Shown here in pieces: positions 3,947-64,000 of a DNA stretch of 64,000 bases (the first letter of the stretch is position 1; each line of letters opens with the position of its first letter). The translations under genes and the position numbers were made by a program. The stretch is taken from assembly GCA_018817165.1 (NCBI GenBank), contig JAHITY010000061.1, positions 1,733 to 65,732 of the forward strand. The letters run 5' to 3'. Source of the stretch: Candidatus Omnitrophota bacterium. GTDB taxonomy: Bacteria > Omnitrophota > Gorgyraeia > B26-G9. The notes beneath the pieces are model-generated. The model ran no database searches, was not told where the DNA came from, and worked only from the letters and a program-made list of their open reading frames with translations.

Positions 3947-4972
3947 TTATATTTTTTTTTGAAATAAAAATACGATCATTCCCGAAAATAACATCAAAAA
4001 ACCAGTCCAAACAAATACTATTCCCGGGTCTTTAATAACTTGGATTATTGTAGCATAAAATATGTCTAAGCGCTTGATTTTGAAATCAAAAACCTCTATT
4101 TCCTGAGACAATATATCATTGATTTGCGGATTGAGAAATACCCATTTTGTGCCAACCGAGTGGTCATGCTGATACATTGTTATGAGTAAAGCCGCATTGC
4201 CTAATTCAGCTGAACGCATAGTAATCCGCCCATTCTGATCAATTTCAGCGTCTGGAAGAAAATGCGTAATCTCCAGGCTAAAACCACCCTTACCGGGTAA
4301 AAATAACGGTTCTCCCTGTTTCCAATTTCCCTGCCAAACCTCATGGCCCATATGACTAATGCTCATTTCTAAATCAGCACAGGCCTTAAAACTTGACTGA
4401 TAGAAACCATATCCCTTGTATTTGAACGGATGATTAACTATTATTTTATGTTCCCGAGCAATATTATCATTTTCCAGCAAGGTTATATTGCTTCGATATA
4501 CTTTGGGTTGCTTTGTATCCGGATAATACTCTATATCAAACTTATCAAAAGTCAGTTTCGCGTTTCCCGGCTTAAGTTCTATTGTTTGGCCAGGTAAGAG
4601 AGTTATATATTCTGAATATTTGAGCAATTTGCTTACGATTGCCCCTGTAAAAATCAGCAATATGCTGAAATGGATCAAAAACAATGCCAATTTCTTCTTA
4701 TTTTTAAACAATGCCCGACTAAAACTATTTATTGTACAAACAAAAAGATTCGTGCCCAGGATAAACAACATACTTTGATAAGCCCATCCATTGTATAAAT
4801 CATTACCTTGAATAAACAATATTCCTTTGCCAAAAAATTCTCCATAATTTTTTAAATAGAACTGGGCATTTTCTCCTTGAACTATAACTGTACCCAAAAT
4901 AGAAACAGCGGCTAAAATTAATAATAGAATAAATGTAATCTTTAAAGAACCTAATTGTTTTAAAAACTTCAT
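3947..4972 (-). CDS. resB: cytochrome c biogenesis protein ResB/Ccs1 (short form)
   Basis: N-terminal TM helix, a large extracytoplasmic domain and a C-terminal TM helix. It is adjacent to ccsA. Confidence 0.65.
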   Translation of the reverse strand: MKFLKQLGSLKITFILLLILAAVSILGTVIVQGENAQFYLKNYGEFFGKGILFIQGNDLYNGWAYQSMLFILGTNLFVCTINSFSRALFKNKKKLALFLIHFSILLIFTGAIVSKLLKYSEYITLLPGQTIELKPGNAKLTFDKFDIEYYPDTKQPKVYRSNITLLENDNIAREHKIIVNHPFKYKGYGFYQSSFKACADLEMSISHMGHEVWQGNWKQGEPLFLPGKGGFSLEITHFLPDAEIDQNGRITMRSAELGNAALLITMYQHDHSVGTKWVFLNPQINDILSQEIEVFDFKIKRLDIFYATIIQVIKDPGIVFVWTGFLMLFSGMIVFLFQKKI

Positions 4973-4996
4973 TATTATTTATCTAAACCCCATTCT

Positions 4997-5863
4997 TTAT
5001 TTTTTCTTCAAAATTCTCTCTTGCAAATCAAATATTGCAAAATGTGATTCATTAATATCCATCAAACTTTCCGTCTTTCCCGCAACGAGATATCCTAGAG
5101 GAGCCAAAGCTTTATAAAAATTCGCATAAACCTGTTTCTGTAACTCTTTAGTAAAATAAATTATTACGTTTCGGCAAAAAATTAGATCTATTCTCTGTAA
5201 CGGTTCATCACTACTCATATTATGATGCCTGAAATTAATCATTGTTTTCAAGTTAGGATTGATTGCATATAAACCTTGTTCGTTTTTCTGAAAATATGCG
5301 CTTATCTGATGACCTTTTAATTCTTTTAATGCTTTTTCTTTATAGACTCCTGCTTCTGCCTGTTTCAATGCAGCCTTATCAATATCAGTAGCATATATTC
5401 TGATTTTAAAATTCTCTTTGAGCTCGGACAATACTTCACTGATCATTATTGCCAAAGAATAGGGCTCTTCTCCGGTTGCGCATCCAGAGCTCCACACCCG
5501 AATAGAAGAAGCATTGATTTCTTTTTTCGCTTTTACAATTTCTGGAATAATCTTACGGCGAACCGCATTAAATGTCTCCGGATTACGAAAAAACTCAGTA
5601 ACATTTATTGTAATTCTATCCAATAAATTGTCATAGCCTTCCGGATTTTTTATCAAGAAGTCTAAATACTCTTCAAAAGAATTAACCCGAGAATCGTGCA
5701 TACCCACAACAATTCTTCTGCGCAAACATTTAGTCCGATATTGACGAAAATCCACACCTCTACGGCGATAAATATTGTGGATTATTTTATTAAAAGCCAG
5801 CAATTCAGCTTCGGGCAAATCATCCTCAAGAAAATCACTTGATCCTGTATTTTTCATAAGCAA
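4997..5863 (-). CDS. cheR: chemotaxis protein-glutamate O-methyltransferase CheR
   Basis: CheR N-domain and a SAM-dependent methyltransferase fold (VWSSGCATGEEPYS). Confidence 0.75.
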   Translation of the reverse strand: MLMKNTGSSDFLEDDLPEAELLAFNKIIHNIYRRRGVDFRQYRTKCLRRRIVVGMHDSRVNSFEEYLDFLIKNPEGYDNLLDRITINVTEFFRNPETFNAVRRKIIPEIVKAKKEINASSIRVWSSGCATGEEPYSLAIMISEVLSELKENFKIRIYATDIDKAALKQAEAGVYKEKALKELKGHQISAYFQKNEQGLYAINPNLKTMINFRHHNMSSDEPLQRIDLIFCRNVIIYFTKELQKQVYANFYKALAPLGYLVAGKTESLMDINESHFAIFDLQERILKKK

Positions 5864-46586: not shown

Positions 46587-47270
46587 CTATTGATCATGCT
46601 TTGATTGGCAATAATTTTCAATAAATGTCCAAATACCCGACTTCGAAACTTTATTCGATTTTGTAAATATTAGGCCTACTTCAAAATTATCTGAATTTTC
46701 GCATTTCTTAGCCCAAACAACTTTTACTTCAAGTTCTATATTCTGATGAACACCTGGCAGTTTAAAGTTTATCAGCAAGCTATCCTCTGAGGCGACTTCC
46801 TGCTCAAGGAGCAACTTCATCCCTCCGCGGCTAATATCAATACTTTTACCCGAAATTTTTTTTTGAGAATCACCTAAATAGCTACCATTAATCGCTGCCT
46901 GTACATCACAGCGAATAAACTCACGGATTTCATCCACCCGGCTAGCGCAATCATAAATAAACTTGGACAAACGCTTATTATCCGGCTCATTTGTATGATT
47001 AAACCTTATGCCCGTAGCAAAACGATTATTCCGCCCAGGTAATTGCCAAAGAATGGTGCCTTCAATCGGTAAAGGCCTGGACCCATCCGGAATATCAAGT
47101 TCAAGCTCTACAATAACTCCATTTTTTAAAGCAATATCAGTATACACATTTATTCCAATAAAACTTAAATCTTTGACCGCGATCTTGCGTTTTCCTTCAA
47201 TCCCACCCTTAAGCTTAAAGCTTACTTCTGATAAGCCCTTAACCCGAACAAATTTTCTTCTTTCTTCCAT
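46587..47270 (-). CDS. tandem PilZ domain protein
   Basis: Two RR..R / D.S..G pairs (ERRKFVRV...DLSFIG and IREFIRCDV...DISRGG). Confidence 0.55.
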   Translation of the reverse strand: MEERRKFVRVKGLSEVSFKLKGGIEGKRKIAVKDLSFIGINVYTDIALKNGVIVELELDIPDGSRPLPIEGTILWQLPGRNNRFATGIRFNHTNEPDNKRLSKFIYDCASRVDEIREFIRCDVQAAINGSYLGDSQKKISGKSIDISRGGMKLLLEQEVASEDSLLINFKLPGVHQNIELEVKVVWAKKCENSDNFEVGLIFTKSNKVSKSGIWTFIENYCQSKHDQ

Positions 47271-48738: not shown

Positions 48739-49416
48739 TTATTTATTATTTTTATACTCAGTTTCAACATATGATTCAATCTGCTTTTTAGACTCATCAC
48801 TTATTTCTAAAAATTCAATTCCGGTTTCAAATAGATTTTCTTCATTTTTTTTAACCCAAGCAACAACTGTACATTTAGCAATGATTTTTTCCGCTTGACC
48901 CGGCAAATTAAACTCTACGCATAACTGCGTTCCTTTATCCATTTGCTCACTAGCCATGACCTTTAAGCCCAAAGGACATACATCAATACTAATACACTGC
49001 TTTTTGACATCCGGCTGATCAAGTAAATTATATTTTATTTGAGCCCGAAAATCACACCTTACATATTCTCTCCGCTCAACAGTTCTCCCAGTAGCCTTTT
49101 CGATAAATCGAAATAGTTTATCCCGATTCTGATCATCAATATAGGTAAACTGGATTCCGATATCAAGCAAATCCATAGTTACCTGTCTTTGCCAAACCAT
49201 TTTTCCTTCAAGTCTGATATCCCCCTCGACTCCGGAAATATTTAAAACCAACTCCAAAACATCTTTTTCAGTTAGCTTTTTAGAACTAATTATCCTCAAA
49301 CCATTACATCCCAGATCTTCCAAGCCAACCCTGTCCGGAATATCCTGATTCCCTTTGATCGTATAGCTTGCATGAGCGTCCACATTTAAACGCACATAGC
49401 CTCTTTGCTCTTTCAT
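48739..49416 (-). CDS. tandem PilZ domain protein (paralog of 46587-47270)
   Basis: QRGYVRL...DLGCNG and RREYVRCDF...DVCPLG. Confidence 0.55.
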   Translation of the reverse strand: MKEQRGYVRLNVDAHASYTIKGNQDIPDRVGLEDLGCNGLRIISSKKLTEKDVLELVLNISGVEGDIRLEGKMVWQRQVTMDLLDIGIQFTYIDDQNRDKLFRFIEKATGRTVERREYVRCDFRAQIKYNLLDQPDVKKQCISIDVCPLGLKVMASEQMDKGTQLCVEFNLPGQAEKIIAKCTVVAWVKKNEENLFETGIEFLEISDESKKQIESYVETEYKNNK

Positions 49417-52554: not shown

Positions 52555-52680
52555 TTAAAAGGTTAAGGTTACGATGCCCGTTTCGTCTTAGGGTAAAGTT
52601 ATCGGCTTAAAATTTATTCTTTTTAACCCTAACCGTTAACGTTACCGATACGGGCTTCGTTACCGCTAAACCCTACCTAT
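52555..52680. repeat. dispersed ~125-bp palindromic element, copy A
   Basis: GGTTACGATGCCCGTTTCGTCTTAGGGTAAAG ... CGTTACCGATACGGGCTTCGTTACCG. The arms are mutually complementary. It is near-identical to copy B at 55881-56010. Confidence 0.55.
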
Positions 52681-52711
52681 CTGTTTTCTGCCAACCCTTT
52701 TAAAGATAATA

Positions 52712-54790: not shown

Positions 54791-55283
54791 TAATATAAAC
54801 TTCCAAGCGATCTATAAAATATACAGCTTTATATTTTAAGCCCATGGGAGAATTATATGGATACTCTTTATATTCACTAAACAAAAGACTCAGTTGTTTA
54901 AAAGTAATCACCTTCTTTTTTAAGTCATATTCACTGCCCTGTGCTTGCATTTGTTCCATCTTTAAAAGATAAACCACCGCAAACGGCAAAGCATCTGAGC
55001 GGGGATAAAGCTCGACAAATTTAGAAAAAGATGTATAGGCATCAAAATAATTAGCGGAAGCAAAATAATACTCCCCGGTCGCGAATAAAGCATCATGATA
55101 ATATGGCGAGCTTATTGATAAGCGCAGCAAAGAATGGAACTGCATAAAACCAAAATCTCTTTCGCCTACTTTAATTGACTGTTTAGCGCTATTAAATAGC
55201 TCCGCGTCTTCCTGGGCATAACCAGACATTGGCCCTAGAATCATACTACTAGCCAAAATTAATAATAAAAAGTTTTTCTGCAT
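54759..55283 (-). CDS. hypothetical secreted protein, TPR-like
   Basis: Signal peptide. Tyr/Phe-rich helical repeats. Confidence 0.4.
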   Translation of the reverse strand: MQKNFLLLILASSMILGPMSGYAQEDAELFNSAKQSIKVGERDFGFMQFHSLLRLSISSPYYHDALFATGEYYFASANYFDAYTSFSKFVELYPRSDALPFAVVYLLKMEQMQAQGSEYDLKKKVITFKQLSLLFSEYKEYPYNSPMGLKYKAVYFIDRLEVYINEALFETVYF

Positions 55284-55372
55284 CCCTTCCCCCCCCTTTA
55301 TTCTTGCGCTTATCTTTAAATATTATTATAACAAACCAAAAAACAGATTAAAAGCATTTTCCCGAAATTACG

Positions 55373-55412
55373 AAAAAAAGCCAACTCTTTTTATCTGAGC
55401 AAGAGCTGGCCT
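55373..55412 (-). terminator. intrinsic terminator after the orphan receiver gene
   Basis: Minus strand: gccagctctt-gctcagataa-aaagagttggc followed by T7. Confidence 0.5.
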
Positions 55413-55438
55413 TTTAAAGTTTAAACTTATCAAACTGC

Positions 55439-55852
55439 TTATTTTTTAATATTTTCTGCTATTACCTTTAATAAAGCTTCCGGATTAATCGGCTTTTCGA
55501 TAACCGCTCTAACCGGCAGCCACTCATCATCTGGTTTAAAATCATAGGCCAGATGCATATCATTTTTAATTCCCGTGACCATAATAACCGGAATATTTTT
55601 TGTCTTCTCGTCATCTTTAAATATTCTTGCCGTATCAAACCCTTCCGTTTTATTAGTCATCATAACATCAAGTAAGATCAAGTCAGGCATTTGCTCTTGC
55701 GCAATAGTAAAACCTTCTTTACCGTTTGGCGCGGTTAAAACTTCAAAACCCTTTGACATGAGCATTGTAGAGACTGCATCCCTAAAATCACCATCATCAT
55801 CAATGATCAATAGCTTTCCTGCCATAATCCCCTCCTTTATTTGAACTATCAC
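55439..55852 (-). CDS. single-domain response regulator receiver (CheY-like)
   Basis: LLIIDDD, DLILLDVMM and KTEG motifs. Probable true start at MAGKLL (55825). It is a paralog of the receiver domain fused to hndA. Confidence 0.75.
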   Translation of the reverse strand: MIVQIKEGIMAGKLLIIDDDGDFRDAVSTMLMSKGFEVLTAPNGKEGFTIAQEQMPDLILLDVMMTNKTEGFDTARIFKDDEKTKNIPVIMVTGIKNDMHLAYDFKPDDEWLPVRAVIEKPINPEALLKVIAENIKK

Positions 55853-55880
55853 AAAATCAAGTTTACAGTTATAGCTTTAA

Positions 55881-56010
55881 GCGGTTACGGACAGGGTTAC
55901 GATGCCCGTTTCGTCTTACGGTAAAGGCTGTGGTCTTAAAATTTATTGTTCTAAGCCTAAACCGTTGAACGTTACCGATACGGGTTTCGTTACCGTTAAA
56001 CCTTACCGAG
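55881..56010. repeat. dispersed ~125-bp palindromic element, copy B
   Basis: Aligns over essentially its full length with copy A, with a few substitutions. It sits between the hndD stop and the orphan receiver gene. Confidence 0.55.
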
Positions 56011-56085
56011 TGTCAACATATCTCCAATTAATAAACAATCTTGATTATAAACTTTTTATCAGATTATTGCAAGCCCAACTGCTGT

Positions 56086-57831
56086 TTATTTTTTATACAT
56101 TGGTTTTGGCGTATATCTTGTATGTAATAGTTTATGCGATTTTTCTCCTAAAGGTTTACCTAAAAACTCCTCATATAATTTGCAAACAAAAGGATTTTCA
56201 TGTGAACTGCGGATTTTAGTATCAGCATCTTCCTGATACAATCCTTGCGCTCTTTTAATCCGCAGCTTATCAGTTACCCCATAAGGTTGCCCACCGCCGC
56301 CAACACATCCGCCCGGACAAGCCATGACTTCAATAAAATGGTATGGCATCTCAGTTTTATCAGCAATTGCTTTTTCCACTTTCTTTAATACATACTCGAC
56401 ATTCCCAATACCGTGAGCAACCGCGACCTTTACTTTTGTGCCTTCAATATCAACTTCCGTTTCCTTCACACCTTCTAATCCGCGGACACTATTAAAATCC
56501 AGCTTAGCCAGTTTTTTATTAGTGACCAAACTATACGCGGTTCTAAGCGCTGCTTCCATTACTCCTCCGGTAGCGCCAAAAATTACCCCGGCTCCGGTAT
56601 AATCTCCCAGGATATGATCAGGCTGCTCATCAGATAAATTAGCAAAATCAATCCCTGCCTGCTTGATCATCCGGGCCAACTCCCTGGTCGTTAATACAAT
56701 ATCAATATCCTGATGCCCTGAAGCAAACATTTGCTCACTTCTGCTAACTTCATATTTTTTCGCGGTACAAGGCATAATTGAAATCATTTCTATTTTTGCC
56801 GGATCAATCTTATTCTTTTGAGCATAATAAGTTTTAGACAATACGCCCACCATCGCATGCGGAGATTTAGCCGTAGAAAAATACTCAATCATATCCGGAT
56901 AAAATCTTTCCATATAATCTACCCATGAAGGACAGCAAGAGGTAATCAAAGGCAGCACTCCCTTTTTATGGACAAAACGTTCGACAAATTCAGAGGCTTC
57001 TTCAACAATGGTTAAATCCGCCCCAAAAGTTGTATCAAATACCGCTTTGAAACCGAGCATTCTTAAAGCAGCATATAATTTACCGGTTAAATTTGTGCCC
57101 ACAGGAAAACCAAACGCCTCTCCGATCGCGACTCTTACTGCCGGCGCGATCTGAACCACGCAAAACTTATCGGGATTATACAAAGACTGCCAAGCTCGAT
57201 GAGTTTGATCATACTCGAAGATTGCCCCAGTCGGGCAATGCGCTGAACACTGCCCACACTTAATACACGGACTATCCGCCAAATTAATATCCCCGGCTGC
57301 TGAAATTCGGGTATTCATCCCTCTTTCTAAAAAAGATAAAGCCCAAACGTCCTGCAAATCCTGACAAACCTGAACACAACGTCCGCATAAAATACATTTT
57401 TCCGGGACCAAAGATATTGTTTTTGTAGAATCGTCTTCCGGTAAGTTTCTTAAATGATGCTTAAACGGAAATTCTCTTATTCCAAAATCACCTGCCAACT
57501 TCTGTAGCTCGCAATTATTATTTCTCCCGCACTGCAGACAATCATTAGGATGATTCGACAAAATTAATTCAATAACAGTTCTACGTGTTTCTTGCAATTC
57601 CTGATCATGCGTGATAATGTCCATGCCTTCATCCAAAGGAGTGCAGCATGAGCGCATCATTTTATTCGTACCCTTAATTTTGACAATACATATGCCGCAT
57701 GCTCCAGTCGCATGCAAATCAGGATGCTTACAAAGAGTAGGTATATTCACATTAATCAGTTTAGCGGCATCCAAAATAGTACTGCCTTTTTTTACCTGTA
57801 CATCGACATTATTAATTTTTGCTTTTATCAT
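56086..57831 (-). CDS. hydA: [FeFe]-hydrogenase catalytic subunit (HndD/HydA type, NuoG-like N-terminus)
   Basis: N-terminal 2Fe-2S fold, a His-ligated cluster, two 4Fe-4S clusters, and the H-cluster motifs TSCCPSW, MPCTAKKYE and MACPGGCVGGGGQP. Confidence 0.85.
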   Translation of the reverse strand: MIKAKINNVDVQVKKGSTILDAAKLINVNIPTLCKHPDLHATGACGICIVKIKGTNKMMRSCCTPLDEGMDIITHDQELQETRRTVIELILSNHPNDCLQCGRNNNCELQKLAGDFGIREFPFKHHLRNLPEDDSTKTISLVPEKCILCGRCVQVCQDLQDVWALSFLERGMNTRISAAGDINLADSPCIKCGQCSAHCPTGAIFEYDQTHRAWQSLYNPDKFCVVQIAPAVRVAIGEAFGFPVGTNLTGKLYAALRMLGFKAVFDTTFGADLTIVEEASEFVERFVHKKGVLPLITSCCPSWVDYMERFYPDMIEYFSTAKSPHAMVGVLSKTYYAQKNKIDPAKIEMISIMPCTAKKYEVSRSEQMFASGHQDIDIVLTTRELARMIKQAGIDFANLSDEQPDHILGDYTGAGVIFGATGGVMEAALRTAYSLVTNKKLAKLDFNSVRGLEGVKETEVDIEGTKVKVAVAHGIGNVEYVLKKVEKAIADKTEMPYHFIEVMACPGGCVGGGGQPYGVTDKLRIKRAQGLYQEDADTKIRSSHENPFVCKLYEEFLGKPLGEKSHKLLHTRYTPKPMYKK

Positions 57832-57834
57832 GGC

Positions 57835-59583
57835 TTACTCCCGTATTACCGCGTCAAATTTACACACATCAAAACATTTACCGCATTTGATACATAGTTC
57901 TTGGTTAATAATATATTCCTTATTTTCATTCTTCGGTATCGCATTTACCGGACAGTCTCTCGAACACATCCCGCAGCTTACACATTTTTCTTTAGAAATC
58001 ACAAAGCGCAATAAATCAGTACATTTTTTCGCAGCACAGCGATGATCATTAATATGCTGATCATATTCAACGCGAAAATATTTCAAGGTGGAAAGAATCG
58101 GATTTGGCGCTGTTTGACCCAATCCGCACAAAGAAGCTTTTTTAACCGAATTACAGATATTTTCCAGTTTTAGCAGATCGCCCTGACTGGCTTTTCCACG
58201 AGAAATATCCTTAAGATAGTTTAACATCTGAAAACCGCCGATTCGGCAAGGCGCGCATTTACCACATGATTCATCAACACAAAAACGCAGATAAAACTTG
58301 GCAATATCCACCATGCAATCATCTTCATCCAGAACGATCATTCCGCCTGAACCCATAATTGAACCGAGCTTTTGAAGATTTTCATAATCAACCGGAGTAT
58401 CGAGAAATTCCTTGGGAATTACCCCGCCCGATGGACCGCCGGTTTGAACAGCTTTTAATTTTTTATCTTCAAATACGCCGCCGCCGATTTCATAAACAAT
58501 CTCACGGATTGTAATCCCCATCGGCACTTCAATTAAGCCGGAATTTTTAACCTTACCGGTCAAAGCAAATACCTTAGTCCCCTTAGAAGTCGCGCTGCCG
58601 ATAGCAGCAAACCATTTCGCCCCTTTTAATAATATCACCGCGATATTCGCCAATGTTTCCACATTATTAATAACTGTTGGCTTTCCCCATAATCCTTTGA
58701 TTGAAGGATACGGCGGACGAGGAGTCGGACAACCTCTTTTACCTTCGATTGAAGCAATCAAAGCCGTCTCTTCACCACAAACAAAAGCGCCCGCTCCCAA
58801 ACGGATATCCAAATCAAAATTAAAATCACTGCCCAGAATATTTTCACCTAAAAGGCCATATTCCCGCGCTTGCTCAATTGCTTTCTGAACTCTTTCAATT
58901 GCCAATGGATATTCCGCGCGAATATAAAAATAGCCTTTATCCGCTCCGATAGCAAAGCCGCCGATAATCATACCTTCAATAACTGAATGCGGATCGCCTT
59001 CTAAAACACTCCGATCCATGTACGCTCCGGGATCACCTTCATCCGCGTTACAGATTATATATTTCTGATCAGCCTCAGTACGCCGCGCGAAATTCCATTT
59101 AGTTGCCGTAGGAAAACCTCCGCCGCCTCTGCCCCTTAAGCCGCTTATTTTCAGCTGCGCGATAACCTCTTCCGGAGAAGAATCAAAGATCACCCTTGAT
59201 AATGCTTGATAACCATCTAGAGCAATATAATCATCAATGTTTTCCGGATCAATTATCCCGCAATTACGTAAAACAATTTTTAACTGCTTGGGATTATCCT
59301 CGAGTACCGACTCTTTAAGCGTTTTATTTTTCTTAATCACTTCACTAACAAGCTCAGCAATCGCGGTTTCATCGCTAATTTTATAGATAATATTTTCCGG
59401 TAAAATTTTTACAATAACTCCCTGACCATAAATACCCAGTTCAGCAACCCGGATAACCTGTACTTGTCCGTCTAGCTTTTCTTCGGACAAAACGCTAGTG
59501 ATCATATCCGCGTAATCAGCCTCACGCTGCTTTCCATCAGTATCACAGACCAATATTATTTTTTTATCATTTTTTCCGCTCAT
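57835..59583 (-). CDS. NuoF-like NADH-binding flavoprotein subunit of bifurcating hydrogenase (HndC/HydB)
   Basis: GLRGRGGGGFPT FMN/NADH site, a 4Fe-4S CGKCAPCR, and two C-terminal ferredoxin clusters. Confidence 0.85.
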   Translation of the reverse strand: MSGKNDKKIILVCDTDGKQREADYADMITSVLSEEKLDGQVQVIRVAELGIYGQGVIVKILPENIIYKISDETAIAELVSEVIKKNKTLKESVLEDNPKQLKIVLRNCGIIDPENIDDYIALDGYQALSRVIFDSSPEEVIAQLKISGLRGRGGGGFPTATKWNFARRTEADQKYIICNADEGDPGAYMDRSVLEGDPHSVIEGMIIGGFAIGADKGYFYIRAEYPLAIERVQKAIEQAREYGLLGENILGSDFNFDLDIRLGAGAFVCGEETALIASIEGKRGCPTPRPPYPSIKGLWGKPTVINNVETLANIAVILLKGAKWFAAIGSATSKGTKVFALTGKVKNSGLIEVPMGITIREIVYEIGGGVFEDKKLKAVQTGGPSGGVIPKEFLDTPVDYENLQKLGSIMGSGGMIVLDEDDCMVDIAKFYLRFCVDESCGKCAPCRIGGFQMLNYLKDISRGKASQGDLLKLENICNSVKKASLCGLGQTAPNPILSTLKYFRVEYDQHINDHRCAAKKCTDLLRFVISKEKCVSCGMCSRDCPVNAIPKNENKEYIINQELCIKCGKCFDVCKFDAVIRE

Positions 59584-59584
59584 C

Positions 59585-59959
59585 TTACTTACCCTTTACG
59601 TTATAAATGTGATCATTTAATAATTTTTTATTAGCAACATGTCTTTCAATAATTTCAATCGCGCTTTTTTTATCAACATTACCATATATAACCTGCGGCA
59701 CGCCATCAATACAAACCTCAACTAATGGCTCAGCATAACATTTGCCGGCACAGCCGCATTGACCAACCGTAACAGCTAAATTGCGTTTCTTTACTTCCTG
59801 TTTTATAGTTTCTAATACAATATCCGCGCCCGCGGCAATCCCGCAAGTACTCATTCCAACTTTAATCCAGTTGTTTCTTGGCTTTGCATGCTCCTGCTTG
59901 ATTTTGTTTAAAGTTTCCCTTGTCAGCTTACTCATTATTCTTGCTCCCTTCTTTAACAT
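59585..59959 (-). CDS. small thioredoxin-like [2Fe-2S] ferredoxin (HndB-like)
   Basis: TCGIAAG...GQCGCAGKC. A real start at MSKLTRE (59935) is possible. Confidence 0.6.
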   Translation of the reverse strand: MLKKGARIMSKLTRETLNKIKQEHAKPRNNWIKVGMSTCGIAAGADIVLETIKQEVKKRNLAVTVGQCGCAGKCYAEPLVEVCIDGVPQVIYGNVDKKSAIEIIERHVANKKLLNDHIYNVKGK

Positions 59960-60806
59960 AAAGTGACAGAATGTCCATTACTTCTTTGGTCTTAACCTTT
60001 CCATACACTTTACTTCCAATTGTAATTACCGGAGCTAAACCGCAGCATCCTAAACATCTAACAACCTGAAGATGAAATAATTTATCCGGCGTTGTCTGCT
60101 CTTCTTCAACATGTAATATCCTTTTAAGCTCTGATAATATTTTAGGAGCGCCTTTTAAATAACAAGCAGTACCCATGCATACAGAAATTGTATTTTTTCC
60201 CGGAGCCTCAAGTTTAAAATAATTATAAAAAGTTAAAACTTCATAAATACTCGCCATGGGAACTCCCAAAATCCTCGACAATTCAAATGATACATTGCGC
60301 GGAACATAACCATAATGATTCTGAATCTCATGCAAGATCATAACCAGATTGCCTTTTTTACCCTTCCACTTATCCGCTAATATTTCTAATTCATTCACTG
60401 TTTTTAGATGATCTTGAGAATTAAGCTTAATGCATTTTCCTACTATTTTAAGCAATGATTCTGGTTTTACCGGTTTTTCCAGCACAGTTATTACTGGTAA
60501 AGATTTATCATTCGCCCGCAGCTCAAAAGGAAAATTCATTTCCTTATGCGCTCCAGTAATCATTATAATCGGAATTTCACGGCTTGCAGCATCAGCCGCG
60601 ATTGCCTTGGCAATATCCGCACCTTCGGTTTTATAGCTCATCATCATATCCAGCAATATCAGATCCGGGGAATCCTGCTTTACCTTAGAAAACCCCTCTT
60701 GCCCGCTAGCCGCAGTAGTTACCTTATATCCGTTTGCTTCCAATAAAAGCTGTGTGGCTTCGCTAAAATCCTGATCATCATCAACAATAAGTATCCTCGC
60801 ACCCAT
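59928..60806 (-). CDS. fusion: N-terminal response-regulator receiver domain + C-terminal NuoE-like [2Fe-2S] subunit (HndA/HydC)
   Basis: Residues 1-125 form a receiver (ILIVDDD, DLILLDMMM, KTEG). The C-terminal half has the NuoE Cys pattern CMGTACYLKGA...RCLGCCGLAPV. Confidence 0.7.
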   Translation of the reverse strand: MGARILIVDDDQDFSEATQLLLEANGYKVTTAASGQEGFSKVKQDSPDLILLDMMMSYKTEGADIAKAIAADAASREIPIIMITGAHKEMNFPFELRANDKSLPVITVLEKPVKPESLLKIVGKCIKLNSQDHLKTVNELEILADKWKGKKGNLVMILHEIQNHYGYVPRNVSFELSRILGVPMASIYEVLTFYNYFKLEAPGKNTISVCMGTACYLKGAPKILSELKRILHVEEEQTTPDKLFHLQVVRCLGCCGLAPVITIGSKVYGKVKTKEVMDILSLYVKEGSKNNE

Positions 60807-60829
60807 ATTTATTCCTTTCTTACTTTTCT

Positions 60830-62680
60830 TTAAACATTCTGCTCTTCTATTTTTATCGTAAACTTAAACGAATTTCCCGCATTTTTCGGCTCAACCCAAA
60901 TTTCACCGCCATGCTGCTCAATTATTTTTTGAGTAATAAACAAGCCAATACCAGTACCTTTGACTTTTTCCATACCCGCATAAATCAAGCGCGAGAACTT
61001 TTTAAATAATTTATCAGTATCAATGCTGGCAATCGGCCTGCCATCATTGTAAACTTCCACTTCTAAAATGCTGTTTTTGACTTTAGTCGTAATTCTGATT
61101 ATCCCGCCTTCTGCTCCGTATTTAATCGCGTTTGACAGTAGATTATTGACGACAATCTGAATCAGCCCAATATCCAGGTTAATCACAATATCCGGATCGC
61201 CCTGAAGCTCAATTGTCATATTTTTTTCTTGAGCCAGCTGAAGAAAAGATTCTATGGCAACATCAAATATCTGCTCTTTTAAATTTGCCATTGTCTTTTT
61301 CAACATTATCTCATCTTTTTCGATCCGGCTTAAGTTAAGAAAATTTTTCACTGTGGCGGAAAGATAATCCAGATTACGAGACATCGAAACCAAAGTTTTT
61401 TTCTGCGCTTCATTCATTGGCCCGAGAAACCCTTTTCTTAAATTATAAGCATTTAAAACAATCGAAGATAAAATGCCTTTAAGCTCATGAGAAACAAAGC
61501 CGACCAAATCCAAATAATTCCGATTTAATACCTCCAATTTATTATTAGAAACAATCAGACTTTTTTCCCGCTGATCCAGCTTGCTGGACATGCTATTAAA
61601 CGCGTCGGCTAATTCTCTTAATTCCTTTAAAGGGCTATTTGTTTGTACTCTATGCTGCAAATCGCCGCTGGCAATTTTGCTGGTCGCGCTTAAAATCATC
61701 GTCATCGGCTTGGTAATTGCCGCGGTTAAAATCAAAGCCAAAATAGCGGCTAAAACCCCGGCAGCACAGATAATTGTAAAAAACGCGAAGACTATTGCCC
61801 GTTCCGTATCGACAAACGGTTTTTCCAGCACCCCAACATACAGCATTCCGATAATATTATTCTCAATATCGACAATCGGTTCATATGCTGTCAAATACCA
61901 GGCATTGACCACAAAAGCTCTATCCACCCAAGTCCCGCGTTTTTTCACAACCTCATTATAAACAACTTCCGATATCCGTGTGCCGATTGCTCTTTGTTTT
62001 TTATCAGTTAAAACATTGGTGGCAATTCGCACATCATCCTGAAAAATAGTTACTGTTCCGACCGGATTGCCTTCATAAATTTTGTTTTGGAAAACCAGAT
62101 TACGGATATTATCAACCAAAGAAAAATCCCGGTTAATTATTTTCCCGCCATAAATAATCTTGCTTACTCTATTCGATTTATCAAAAATCGGCATAGCATA
62201 TTCAATCGCCATGGCCTGCTCAAGGATTTTTTTGTCTGTAGGAATTGCTTTGGGCGTAGCTAATATAGCTATCTTAACCTTTGCCGCTAAATCCTGATCA
62301 ATTTTGATTAACTCTTGTTTGTCAATAATTCTTGTTCCGCCAATCGCCTTGCCTTCAAAAGCGCTCAAAGCAATCTGACTGACAACCTGTTGTTTTTGAT
62401 CAATTGAAATCTGATACATATAATCCAAGCCGGTCTTCCGCTTAAATTCAATTAAATCAGAATTATCACAAGTAAGCTCAAATGCCTGCCGAATAGAATC
62501 TATTTGATTATTATAAACCGAACGCGCAGTTTGTAAATTACTCTTAACTTCCTGCTGCGCTTTTTCTAAAATATCCTTTTTAAGAATATCGGCGCCCAAC
62601 ATAGCGATAGAAACACCCAAAACAATAATCAGGCTGAAAAAAGATAAAAATATTCTTGGTTTAAGTGAATTTAGTTTCAT
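60830..62680 (-). CDS. sensor histidine kinase with large periplasmic (Cache-like) domain
   Basis: TM helix, a ~260-aa periplasmic domain, a second TM helix, HAMP, the HisKA motif SHELKGIL, and an HATPase with N and G boxes. Confidence 0.8.
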   Translation of the reverse strand: MKLNSLKPRIFLSFFSLIIVLGVSIAMLGADILKKDILEKAQQEVKSNLQTARSVYNNQIDSIRQAFELTCDNSDLIEFKRKTGLDYMYQISIDQKQQVVSQIALSAFEGKAIGGTRIIDKQELIKIDQDLAAKVKIAILATPKAIPTDKKILEQAMAIEYAMPIFDKSNRVSKIIYGGKIINRDFSLVDNIRNLVFQNKIYEGNPVGTVTIFQDDVRIATNVLTDKKQRAIGTRISEVVYNEVVKKRGTWVDRAFVVNAWYLTAYEPIVDIENNIIGMLYVGVLEKPFVDTERAIVFAFFTIICAAGVLAAILALILTAAITKPMTMILSATSKIASGDLQHRVQTNSPLKELRELADAFNSMSSKLDQREKSLIVSNNKLEVLNRNYLDLVGFVSHELKGILSSIVLNAYNLRKGFLGPMNEAQKKTLVSMSRNLDYLSATVKNFLNLSRIEKDEIMLKKTMANLKEQIFDVAIESFLQLAQEKNMTIELQGDPDIVINLDIGLIQIVVNNLLSNAIKYGAEGGIIRITTKVKNSILEVEVYNDGRPIASIDTDKLFKKFSRLIYAGMEKVKGTGIGLFITQKIIEQHGGEIWVEPKNAGNSFKFTIKIEEQNV

Positions 62681-62686
62681 TTATAT

Positions 62687-63331
62687 TTATGCTTCCTGCG
62701 CATCCTTTTCCAATGCTTTTTCCAATAAATTGCTAAAATAAATTACATTTTCCAGCTCCAGCACCAAATTAACATTATTCACTACACACTCTCTGGGAGC
62801 GCGTAATCTAATTGGCGCAAAATTCAAAATACCCTTTACTCCGGATAAAACCATTAAATCCAAAACCTGCTGTGCCGCTGATTCCGGAACAGCAATAATC
62901 CCAATGCGAATATCATTTTTTTGAATAAACTCAATCATATCATCAGCAGCTAAAACCGGAATATCAGCCCGGGGATTTACCTTTAACGGATCAGCTTCAA
63001 ACACCGCATCGATCCTAATCCCGTCTTTTTCAAACCCTTCGTATTTAGCCAAAGCCGCGCCAATATTACCCGCGCCCACAATAATCGCGTGCTGGATTAT
63101 GTTTTTACCGAGGATATTATTCAAATGCTCAATCAGCTCATCAATCTGATACCCGCCACGCTTATTTCCAGAAATACCGAAAATTGAAAAATCTTTTCTT
63201 ACCTGACAAGAATTTACCCCAATAGCATCAGCTAAATTGTCAGAAAAAATTCGGCCAAACCCCATTGTTTTTAATCTTCTCAAAGCATTTTTGTATCGAG
63301 AAAGCCGGATAATACTATTTTTATTCCTCAT
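62687..63331 (-). CDS. rex: redox-sensing transcriptional repressor Rex
   Basis: Winged-helix N-terminus, YQIDEL, and the Rossmann motif IVGAGNIGAALA. Confidence 0.85.
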   Translation of the reverse strand: MRNKNSIIRLSRYKNALRRLKTMGFGRIFSDNLADAIGVNSCQVRKDFSIFGISGNKRGGYQIDELIEHLNNILGKNIIQHAIIVGAGNIGAALAKYEGFEKDGIRIDAVFEADPLKVNPRADIPVLAADDMIEFIQKNDIRIGIIAVPESAAQQVLDLMVLSGVKGILNFAPIRLRAPRECVVNNVNLVLELENVIYFSNLLEKALEKDAQEA

Positions 63332-63344
63332 TGAATAAACCTTC

Positions 63345-63362
63345 TTGTGATTTTTTTCACAA
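63345..63362. promoter_or_regulatory. Rex operator TTGTGAtttttTCACAA (matches the TTGTGAA-N4-TTCACAA consensus)
   Basis: Perfect inverted half-sites. It lies 14 nt upstream of the rex start. Confidence 0.55.
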
Positions 63363-63407
63363 TAATTAAACTGATAAAAAAAAACATCTATTTGTTAAAA
63401 TAGATTT

Positions 63408-63425
63408 TTGTTACTTTTTTCACAA
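63408..63425. promoter_or_regulatory. second Rex-box-like site TTGTTACTTTTTTCACAA
   Basis: 63 bp from the first site. One half-site is degenerate. Confidence 0.35.
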
Positions 63426-63467
63426 TATAATATAAATGTACCATATATCTGCCTCTTGTCAAGGGGT

Positions 63468-63485
63468 TTTGTTATTTTTTCACAA
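63468..63485. promoter_or_regulatory. third Rex-box-like site TTTGTTATTTTTTCACAA
   Basis: A further 60-63 bp upstream. Degenerate. Confidence 0.3.
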
Positions 63486-63536
63486 AAACCTTAATTTGCA
63501 AATTTTGATTTAAATAAACAAATAATTTTACCCAAT

Positions 63537-63567
63537 CCTGTAGGGACAGGGCTTGCCCCTGTCCGTT
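63537..63567 (+). repeat. REP element (cctGTAGGG-acaggg-cttgc-ccctgtcc-GTT)
   Basis: GTAG head plus an 8-bp hairpin. Confidence 0.5.
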
Positions 63568-63597
63568 ATAGAATAATTCATAATATTATGTTTATCA

Positions 63598-63873
63598 TTA
63601 TAAAAAAATTATTGTACGAATTATATGGTCATAAAATGAACGTTGCCATTTAAATTTATTATTATTTATCTGATTGATTTGTTTTGTAACAGCGGATTTA
63701 AACGAACGGATAATTACAGATAAAGACCCAGCAAACAGTCCTTTATTATATCCTGTAGGGGCACAGCGTGCTGTGCCCGTATCATGTAAAATTATTATTC
63801 CATGGATATGATTCGGCATGATAACGTATTCGATTATTTCGACATTATCATATTGATTAGGGATATCAATCAA
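63598..63873 (-). pseudogene. degraded IS200/RAYT-like HUH tyrosine transposase (TnpA_REP)
   Basis: HUH motif IMPNHIHGII and the distal WQRSFYDHIIR. The N-terminal half is missing. A REP hairpin (63752-63781) is embedded in-frame (translated as TGTARCAPTG). Another inverted REP occupies the expected 5' end. Confidence 0.55.
63752..63781 (+). repeat. REP element (cctGTAGGGG-cacagc-gtg-ctgtgccc-GTA) inside the RAYT remnant
   Basis: Same head as 63537. Confidence 0.5.
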
Positions 63874-63913
63874 TTGATTATCAATTATTTGACCGATTAT
63901 TAATAATTCTATT

Positions 63914-63943
63914 CGGGATGGGGCAAGCCCATCCCCTACAGGT
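63914..63943 (-). repeat. REP element in inverted orientation (minus strand reads cctGTAGGGGatgggcttgccccatccc)
   Basis: Forms an inverted pair with 63752-63781 around the transposase remnant. Confidence 0.5.
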
Positions 63944-64000
63944 TATTGTATTATTTTACCAAATATGCATTCATGATCTATTGCACATATCGTTATAAAA

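Follow-up and report, generated by a model that had tools for sequence, protein, structure and literature searches.

A Rex-headed [FeFe]-hydrogenase operon from Omnitrophota with a receiver domain fused to its NuoE-like subunit and a Cache-type sensor kinase gene upstream

Introduction

The economy of H2 in anoxic ecosystems is governed by multimeric [FeFe] hydrogenases. Among them, the electron-bifurcating members of group A3 include HndABCD of Desulfovibrio fructosovorans and HydABC of Thermotoga maritima, Acetobacterium woodii and Thermoanaerobacter kivui, and the regulation known so far for such enzymes is either transcriptional, through Rex, or exerted by poorly understood modules of HydS and Ser/Thr-type signalling. 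Here we describe an operon with the same subunit set and order in a 64,000-nt stretch of DNA (the window) from a Candidatus Omnitrophota bacterium (assembly GCA_018817165.1, contig JAHITY010000061.1, forward-strand positions 1,733-65,732), a phylum without isolates. In this operon a CheY-like receiver (REC) domain is fused to the N-terminus of the NuoE-like [2Fe-2S] subunit, HndA, and the gene for a Cache-type membrane sensor histidine kinase precedes that of the fusion.

Unlike the window, the solved and reviewed Hnd/HydABC enzymes have no receiver on the NuoE subunit and no two-component kinase in the operon. We found no description of a receiver-NuoE fusion (REC::NuoE) or of a Cache kinase in such operons in the full-text literature, a body that excludes subscription-only work such as Poudel et al. 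2016. Neither feature is mentioned in the hydrogenase reviews and surveys PMC6288185, PMC9304861 and PMC11406978, or in the Omnitrophota genomics papers PMC8542988 and PMC10066038.

Signalling genes do occur inside other bifurcating-hydrogenase clusters. In Firmicutes such as Ruminococcus albus, a HydS-type (group C) sensory [FeFe] hydrogenase is accompanied by PP2C, Ser/Thr-kinase-like and HATPase genes beside the bifurcating genes (PMC6288185, citing Zheng et al. 2014). That system and the window are alike in this placement and in having Rex nearby. They differ in their parts: the HydS system relies on a cytoplasmic PAS-hydrogenase sensor and Ser/Thr-type signalling, whereas the window encodes a membrane Cache kinase with predicted His-Asp transfer to an enzyme-borne receiver. 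The hydrogenase of the former is sensory, and that of the latter, HndD, is catalytic in architecture; a Pfam scan of the window operon found no PAS, PP2C, DRTGG or HATPase_c_2 genes.

Two-component systems dedicated to a hydrogenase are also known for [NiFe] enzymes, which HupUV-HupT-HupR and HoxBC-HoxJ-HoxA control in response to H2, with a cytoplasmic regulatory hydrogenase as sensor and a DNA-binding regulator as output. In the window, by contrast, the sensor domain is predicted to be extracytoplasmic and the output has no DNA-binding domain. In-cis receivers that control a non-DNA-binding output by phosphorylation are found in CheB, PleD/WspR and RpfG, and the fusion described here shares that logic. 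Unlike theirs, however, its output is no self-contained catalytic domain but an electron-transfer subunit, bearing iron-sulfur, within a redox complex of four subunits, and its receiver lacks a canonical alpha4.

Results and discussion

Operon and enzyme identity

Seven minus-strand genes are tightly packed within 55373-63462: rex, the kinase, the REC::NuoE fusion, hndB, hndC, hndD and a stand-alone receiver (Table 1). An earlier reading made from the DNA letters without database searches (the sequence-only reading) had described the first six as a Rex-headed operon, and Pfam and NCBIfam matches place all of them as it proposed. Its gaps of 2 to 23 nt are roughly right: the spacings from rex to hndD are 6, 23, -8, 1 and 3 nt, the exception being hndB, whose start overlaps the stop codon of the fusion gene by 8 nt. 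The orthologues of hndB in loci L081 and L083 are likewise 116 amino acids (aa) long, and the position of this gene is kept in all loci (here and below, L numbers denote related loci and P numbers homologous proteins or clusters, from genome and metagenome collections).

By every sequence criterion tested, the enzyme is a multimeric NADH-linked [FeFe] hydrogenase of the Hnd/HydABC type, group A3 ('A6' in NCBIfam). HndD scores 811.7 bits against NF040763, 'NADH-dependent [FeFe] hydrogenase, group A6' (cutoff 765), and its translation contains the three H-cluster motifs TSCCPSW, MPCTAKKYE and EVMACPGGCVGGGGQP; HndC scores 479 bits against the NuoF family TIGR01959. The NuoF-like FMN/NADH subunit and the NuoE-like [2Fe-2S] subunit are both co-encoded in the operon, their cofactor-binding domains being visible in the sequence; bifurcation or confurcation with NAD(H) and ferredoxin is a prediction. 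The Rex protein has the expected architecture, a winged-helix N-terminus and a Rossmann NADH domain, with its NF003996 score above the cutoff.

No DNA-binding response regulator is encoded in the operon or anywhere in the window, as had been noted for the operon in the sequence-only reading. Nor does the window encode any receiver or kinase beyond those of the cluster.

A receiver domain added to a complete HydC-type subunit

The gene at the centre of this arrangement had been read as a CheY-like receiver followed by a NuoE/HndA-like half, and the domain scan of 59928-60806 indeed returns Response_reg and 2Fe-2S_thioredx. Both Pfam domains are present in 119 of the 120 top homologous clusters (54-100% identity); the named ones belong mostly to Candidatus Omnitrophota and one to Ca. 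Aureabacteria. The sole exception, P0006, is the NCBI call of this same gene, N-terminally shortened to 203 aa. Under its NCBI name, 'NAD(P)H-dependent oxidoreductase subunit E', most of the receiver is missing and the fusion is hidden from annotation-based surveys. Another variant, P0139 (578 aa), contains two Response_reg and two 2Fe-2S_thioredx stretches and appears to be a tandem duplication of the REC::NuoE unit.

The shortened P0006 is the only hint that the gene might really be two, joined through a frameshift in sequencing or a fault in assembly. Against it stand more than 100 independent clusters, drawn from assemblies of JGI, ENA, NCBI and Logan, and 30 non-duplicate loci, all with the uninterrupted architecture, as well as the existence of genuine split versions that can be told apart from the fusion. 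We rejected a merged-gene artefact on the grounds of homologue architecture and residue conservation, and its probability is close to nil; the open reading frame is a genuine single gene.

The phosphorylation chemistry of the receiver is well preserved across the family. Among the 119 full-length homologues, the acidic residues D9, D10 and D11 are conserved in 116, 107 and 112 sequences, the phospho-acceptor D53 in 111 and T84 in 113, while K111 is invariant (119/119), as are the four [2Fe-2S] cysteines of the NuoE half (119/119). The Asp and Lys residues of a receiver, on which the sequence-only reading depended, are thus present. The join between the two halves is of fixed length: K111 and W147, the first invariant NuoE residue, lie exactly 36 residues apart in 116 of the 119 homologues, with a variable sequence between them.

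Over residues 137-283, the fusion aligns with nearly the entire HydC chain of bifurcating hydrogenases of known structure (7t2r_C, 8a6t_C, 7p5h_C and 7q4v_C). As the C-terminal half matches almost the whole of HydC, the receiver is a pure N-terminal addition to a complete subunit; because this half is complete and encoded by the only NuoE gene of the operon, the fusion must be a structural subunit of the enzyme. An AF2 model built on 66 family members (mean pLDDT 81.5) has a receiver fold with strands beta1-beta5 and helices alpha1-3 and alpha5, the last of which continues as one helix, aa 115-146, into NuoE. A Foldseek search of the model against the PDB returned only NuoE/HydC/NDUFV2 chains and nothing on the atypical receiver.

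The kinase and the phospho-site occur together

Window proteins were mapped onto 168 related loci, and the counts given here are of non-duplicate loci with an assessable upstream region. In this comparison, made across 160 loci, a Cache kinase lies immediately upstream in 19 of 26 loci with fused REC::NuoE, in none of the six with split REC and NuoE genes and in 2 of 92 with plain NuoE; the difference between fused and plain is pronounced (Fisher's exact p = 3e-14), on counts of fused, split and plain loci that are not phylogenetically independent. The active site of the receiver follows the same division. All kinase-linked fusions keep D53, T/S84 and K111 (19/19), whereas all kinase-less fusions have a degenerate phospho-site (6/6; p = 6e-6): D53E and D10A in L011; D10N, D11N and T84I in L012; D53N and D10G in L083; D53N in L100; D53S and T84L in L105; D53E and T84D in L106. 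These six losses map to four or more distinct positions in the receiver tree, and since the lineages concerned are scattered in it, loss of the kinase and decay of the phospho-site appear to have been coupled repeatedly.

The comparative evidence is therefore strong that the operon kinase acts on the fused receiver, and the pattern is the one to be expected of a kinase that uses D53. The earlier proposal that the kinase signals to the receiver of the enzyme itself, rather than to a DNA-binding regulator, gains its support from these two associations (kinase upstream in 19/26 against 2/92, and a site intact in 19/19 against degenerate in 6/6).

The acceptor replacements are of two sorts, namely Glu, which is phosphomimetic-like (L011 and L106), and the non-phosphorylatable Asn (L083 and L100) or Ser. 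Set beside intact sites, the decayed ones offer natural 'locked' variants (D53E, D53N) for comparison.

A membrane sensor kinase with a variant G1 box

The kinase begins with a transmembrane segment, followed by an extracytoplasmic sCache_3_3 domain, a second transmembrane segment, HAMP, HisKA with H398, and HATPase_c; the Cache domain is bracketed by the two hydrophobic stretches, which span roughly aa 8-34 and 293-330. A PDB sequence search with the sensor domain gave only weak matches, to two chemoreceptor ligand-binding domains (E = 2e-4), so that no ligand can be inferred from them.

The H-box (FVSH398ELKG), the N-box (NNLLSNAIKY) and the G2 box (GTGIGL) are all normal, and HisKA and HATPase_c score above their Pfam cutoffs. 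The G1 box, near aa 547-553, reads YNDGRPI and departs from the canonical DxGxG. In GHKL ATPases the Asp of this box contacts adenine; given the YNDGRPI reading, it is replaced by Asn in the window kinase. In an alignment with 24 non-identical orthologous Cache kinases, all of them from hydrogenase clusters, the variant YN[D/E]GxPI recurs in 23 (L019 has YNDSDPI), whereas the kinase of L085, which is paired with an NtrC-type regulator, keeps the canonical form, DNGYGI. The variant points to a changed mode of nucleotide binding or to a bias towards phosphatase action. Hence, of the 'canonical periplasm-sensing kinase' of the sequence-only reading, the membrane Cache architecture stands and the fully canonical character does not.

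Two proposed layers of control

We propose that the operon is controlled in two layers, by Rex at transcription and by a kinase-set phosphorylation of the HndA receiver that alters the hydrogenase, a reading that we hold to be fairly probable. In the first layer, Rex would bind two operators before rex and couple transcription to the NADH/NAD+ ratio. In the second, the membrane kinase would sense an extracytoplasmic ligand through sCache_3_3 and set the phosphorylation state of Asp53 in the receiver on the HndA N-terminus; its action probably extends to the stand-alone paralogue whose gene follows hndD. The phospho-state may then be passed to the peripheral HndA/HndC diaphorase lobe, either mechanically or by receiver dimerisation; mechanical transmission is proposed because alpha5 continues as one rigid helix of fixed length into NuoE. 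A change in assembly state or in electron flow would finally gate the NADH-dependent production or uptake of H2, with no need for new gene expression. We infer the phosphotransfer, the direction and nature of its effect on the enzyme and, with these, the post-translational gating of H2 metabolism by phosphorylation.

The position of the receiver fits such a role. The solved HydABC structures show HydB and HydC as lobes that project outwards, with the HydC cluster next to mobile bridge domains to which a central part in bifurcation is ascribed (PMC9499530). On this arrangement, an N-terminal receiver on HydC would be both sterically plausible and well placed. Models of bifurcation by conformational gating need a handle, and the receiver would sit on the peripheral HydB/HydC lobe whose movements have been proposed to gate.

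Several observations weigh against this proposal. The alpha4 region of the receiver (aa 85-106) is a non-helical insert in the AF2 model, with a pLDDT of about 58-70, and the residue three before K111, which we take from its spacing to correspond to the aromatic switch of CheY, is Ile or Val in 119/119 homologues; because of this atypical region and the aliphatic switch position, the canonical receiver output mechanism may not apply. The Asp-to-Asn change in G1 could weaken or alter the kinase activity, or tilt the enzyme towards phosphatase action. A degenerate receiver is retained where the kinase is absent. Finally, the kinase and fusion counts are phylogenetically non-independent, and all genomes are uncultured metagenome-assembled genomes.

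Three of these points, the degenerate active sites retained in six kinase-less lineages, the non-canonical alpha4 region and the aliphatic switch residue, would also suit a structural pseudo-receiver, that is, a domain serving mainly in the assembly or oligomerisation of the Hnd complex, for which phosphorylation is irrelevant or vestigial. Yet the full D/D/T/K set is kept in 19/19 kinase-linked fusions, down to 48-55% kinase identity, and K111 is invariant; as the set is kept wherever the kinase is present, selection seems to act on phosphorylation chemistry, and we judge a pseudo-receiver to be quite unlikely. Since the kinase-less lineages retain the receiver in degenerate form, it must nevertheless also have a structural role that does not depend on phosphorylation.

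The variant G1 box also bears on the direction of signalling. Single-domain receivers can autophosphorylate from acetyl phosphate. Conceivably, acetyl phosphate or the redox state of the NuoE [2Fe-2S] cluster sets the phosphorylation, and the variant-G1 kinase is chiefly a phosphatase under the control of its signal. In that case the hydrogenase, besides being a target of the pathway, would feed into it or integrate it, which is compatible with two-layer control. The conserved G1 changes, Asp to Asn and Gly to Pro, mark the kinase clade, are absent from the L085 kinase and would fit an altered nucleotide handling. The normal H-box, N-box and G2 box speak against such reverse signalling, for which both proposed phospho-donors are conjectural, and we give it little credence.

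Were two-layer control to hold, it would be the first His-Asp phospho-control acting on an electron-bifurcating enzyme itself, and it would couple the disposal of redox equivalents to a signal from outside the cell. The proposal involves few parts, namely the cytoplasmic portion of the kinase, HndA-D and the D53 variants, and is thus directly testable; it would also give a physiological clue for Omnitrophota.

A wider partnership of receivers and NuoE

The fusion is one form of a broader association. In L010, L026, L030 and L031, a receiver of 127 aa and NuoE are encoded by adjacent separate genes; in the receiver tree these split receivers group with the orphan receivers found downstream, in a clade sister to the fused ones. 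L002 and L010 contain second [FeFe] clusters with further receiver genes abutting NuoE. Two further clusters, one in the closed genome of Ca. Velamenicoccus archaeovorus and the other in L170, open with rex and then a kinase of the same clade (about 50% identity). The kinase is followed there by a 119-aa protein, NuoF, HydA, an unfused NuoE among HydG/HydE genes (in the order NuoE-HydG-HydE in L169 and HydG-NuoE-HydE in L170) and a receiver of 127-128 aa. The exact architecture of the window recurs in L081, a metagenome contig, where it is followed by a TM1266-like gene and HydF/G/E, and whose fusion protein P0080 is the one named Candidatus Aureabacteria by NCBI. From these gene orders, the window operon is one variant of a widespread module of Rex, Cache kinase and single-domain receiver in predicted Omnitrophota [FeFe]-hydrogenase clusters.

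An exhaustive search of 1.8 billion cluster representatives also found distant REC::NuoE fusions, with 33-37% identity and receivers of canonical length, at the head of other NuoEF enzymes. In L085 (2983-8855), an sCache_3_3 kinase, an NtrC-type sigma-54 activator and a double-receiver protein precede a REC::NuoE-NuoF-HydA-like set; the pathway here seems to branch, towards transcription on one side and towards a receiver attached to the enzyme on the other. L086, from Dissulfurispiraceae, has REC::NuoE in a molybdopterin formate-dehydrogenase-like cluster, and L087 in a cluster resembling HdrA/MvhD/HdrBC. In L088 it stands with HydS-like sensor, DRTGG, HATPase_c_2 and PHP genes, which joins the fusion to the HydS type of signalling, and with a REC::GCV_H fusion. 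The latter, at 4572-5342 of this Pseudomonadota metagenome-assembled genome and directly upstream of REC::NuoE, combines Response_reg with GCV_H, the glycine-cleavage H-protein, and is thus a further receiver borne by a small carrier or redox protein. Candidate fusions in the reverse order, NuoE-REC (P0158, P0164, P0169, P0131 and P0249), were rejected, Pfam showing them to be multi-receiver proteins without NuoE.

The arrangement had struck the sequence-only reading as unfamiliar, which agrees with the literature that we found. It is no one-off oddity, given more than 100 clusters and its presence on other NuoEF-type enzymes, and the search for the same architecture in other genomes that was then suggested has yielded 30 non-duplicate loci. 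Some distant fusions bear the automatic IMG label 'NADH:ubiquinone oxidoreductase subunit E/CheY-like chemotaxis protein'; as such labels carry both domains, the architecture is already visible in databases, apparently undiscussed.

More tentatively, and with doubts outweighing our confidence, a receiver on the NuoE-like subunit may be a general, phosphorylation-operated clutch on bifurcating enzymes of the Bfu/NuoEF type, comprising the Omnitrophota hydrogenases as well as formate-dehydrogenase-like and Hdr-linked complexes elsewhere. If so, an extracellular cue could switch H2 production or consumption on a timescale of seconds; for host- or partner-dependent ultra-small bacteria, this cue might be a partner-derived metabolite.

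The stand-alone receiver

Downstream of hndD lies a receiver of 128 aa that is 44% identical to the fused one over 127 aa (blastp), shares the alpha4-region insert and has an intact D/D/D/T/K set. Its likeness to the fused receiver had been recognised from quoted peptides, which hold; the start at 55852 given with them probably does not, as the likely start codon is ATG 55825, with AAGGAGG ahead, rather than GTG 55852. Like the fused receiver, it scores best against single-domain or PleD-type receivers. Single-domain regulators include CheY, DivK and the DVU0259 family, and from the last both are clearly distinct: NF045717 scores are 68 bits for the orphan and 63 for the fused receiver, far below the cutoff of 160. 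They form hydrogenase-cluster clades of their own in the receiver tree, that of the stand-alone receiver being sister to the fused clade, and these share a DxMM(T/S)x(K)TEG motif together with the alpha4-region insert.

The stand-alone receiver may, as suggested in the sequence-only reading, be a phosphate sink or a competing partner. The paralogue also raises the possibility of another sink or branch point, in which the true output is the stand-alone receiver or a distant DNA-binding regulator, and the fused receiver buffers or competes without any effect on the hydrogenase. Such a paralogue follows hndD in 7 of 19 fused loci and has its own conserved promoter-like site. Branched pathways do exist, as L085 combines an sCache_3_3 kinase with both an NtrC-type sigma-54 activator and a REC::NuoE fusion. 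On the other hand, a sink does not need to be joined covalently to NuoE by a helix of fixed length, nor would it turn up as a fusion to the NuoE-type subunit in several distinct enzymes; 12 of the 19 fused loci have no downstream receiver, and the window has no DNA-binding response regulator. We consider a sink unlikely, and phosphorylation acting on the hydrogenase itself remains our preferred explanation.

The spacer between hndD and the stand-alone receiver measures 260 nt. A cis-regulatory RNA, considered for 233 nt of it, was rejected: there is no Rfam match in 55000-64000, and the RNA fold z-score is -0.63. The extra length of the spacer comes from a dispersed-repeat insertion, which the close relatives L001 and L006 lack. 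This repeat of about 135 nt, of which two copies lie at 55880-56010 and 52575-52700 (about 85-90% identical), has no Rfam match and no significant RNA fold, and is possibly an element resembling miniature inverted-repeat transposable elements.

Predicted Rex sites, promoters and terminator

Rex operators were scanned as matches to the consensus type TTGTGAA-N4-TTCACAA, and all sites given here are thus predicted. With up to 2 mismatches, 9 sites were found in the window against 3.3 expected. Two of them precede rex (Table 1), the distal one just downstream of the -10 hexamer of a promoter-like sequence, whose end is at 63435. Rex control of the rex promoter would follow from established knowledge of Rex and these operator-like sites. 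A further operator-like site, TTGTTAAGGTGGTCACAA, with one mismatch, lies at 20963-20980 inside a plus-strand open reading frame (20545-21288).

The gene cluster ends in a terminator-like hairpin that was read directly. The automatic scan did not list it, its loop of 11 nt exceeding the 8-nt limit of that scan.

Table 1. Predicted features of the hydrogenase gene cluster, in window coordinates
Feature	Coordinates	Strand	Description and evidence
Promoter upstream of rex, sigma-70-like	63435..63462	-	TTGACA, 16 nt, TACATT with TG extension; 10/12 matches, consensus match only
Rex operator-like palindrome, distal	63408..63425	.	TTGTGAAAAAAGTAACAA (minus-strand reading); one mismatch to TTGTKAANNNNTTMACAA
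Rex operator-like palindrome, proximal	63345..63362	.	TTGTGAAAAAAATCACAA; one mismatch to consensus; 14 nt upstream of rex start codon
rex	62687..63331	-	214 aa; NCBIfam NF003996 Rex equivalog, 231.8 bits (cutoff 138); Pfam Put_DNA-bind_N and CoA_binding
Membrane sensor histidine kinase	60830..62680	-	616 aa; Pfam sCache_3_3 (8e-32), HAMP, HisKA, HATPase_c
REC::NuoE fusion	59928..60806	-	292 aa; Response_reg aa 5-122 (2.8e-19) and 2Fe-2S_thioredx aa 144-281 (7.6e-44)
REC domain of fusion	60441..60806	-	aa 1-122; D9/D10/D11, phospho-acceptor D53, T84, K111; Response_reg 69.8 bits (cutoff 30.2)
Connector of fusion	60399..60440	-	aa 123-136; within one predicted helix, aa 115-146, from REC alpha5 to first NuoE helix (AF2)
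NuoE/HndA/HydC-type [2Fe-2S] module of fusion, complete	59928..60398	-	aa 137-292; C210, C215, C251, C255; 2Fe-2S_thioredx 149.5 bits
hndB, thioredoxin-like [2Fe-2S] small subunit	59585..59935	-	116 aa from second ATG; weak 2Fe-2S_thioredx match
hndC, NuoF-like NADH/FMN subunit	57835..59583	-	582 aa; C-terminal 2x[4Fe-4S]; Complex1_51K, NADH_4Fe-4S, Fer4
hndD, catalytic [FeFe] hydrogenase	56086..57831	-	581 aa; Fe_hyd_lg_C 316 bits; Fe_hyd_SSU; N-terminal Fe-S domains (Fer2_4, NADH-G_4Fe-4S_3)
Promoter-like site between hndD and orphan receiver	56044..56072	-	TTGCAA, 17 nt, TATAAT; kept in close relatives L001 and L006
Stand-alone receiver	55439..55825	-	128 aa; Response_reg 1.3e-17
Intrinsic-terminator-like hairpin	55373..55410	-	GCCAGCTCTT ... 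AAGAGTTGGC, then T7; GC-rich

Neighbouring features

Upstream of the rex promoter, a 91-aa open reading frame (63598-63873) contains the motif 'MPNHIHGII', which is reminiscent of HUH/Y1 transposases (IS200 or associated with repetitive extragenic palindromic sequences). GC-rich palindromic sequences flank it at about 63530-63560 and 63913-63940, the former just upstream of the rex promoter, which gives the whole the appearance of a truncated RAYT-like element. Two paralogues, each about 225 aa long and bearing two PilZ domains, are encoded at a distance of a few kb from the hydrogenase operon (46587-47270 and 48739-49416); they are candidate cyclic di-GMP receptors.

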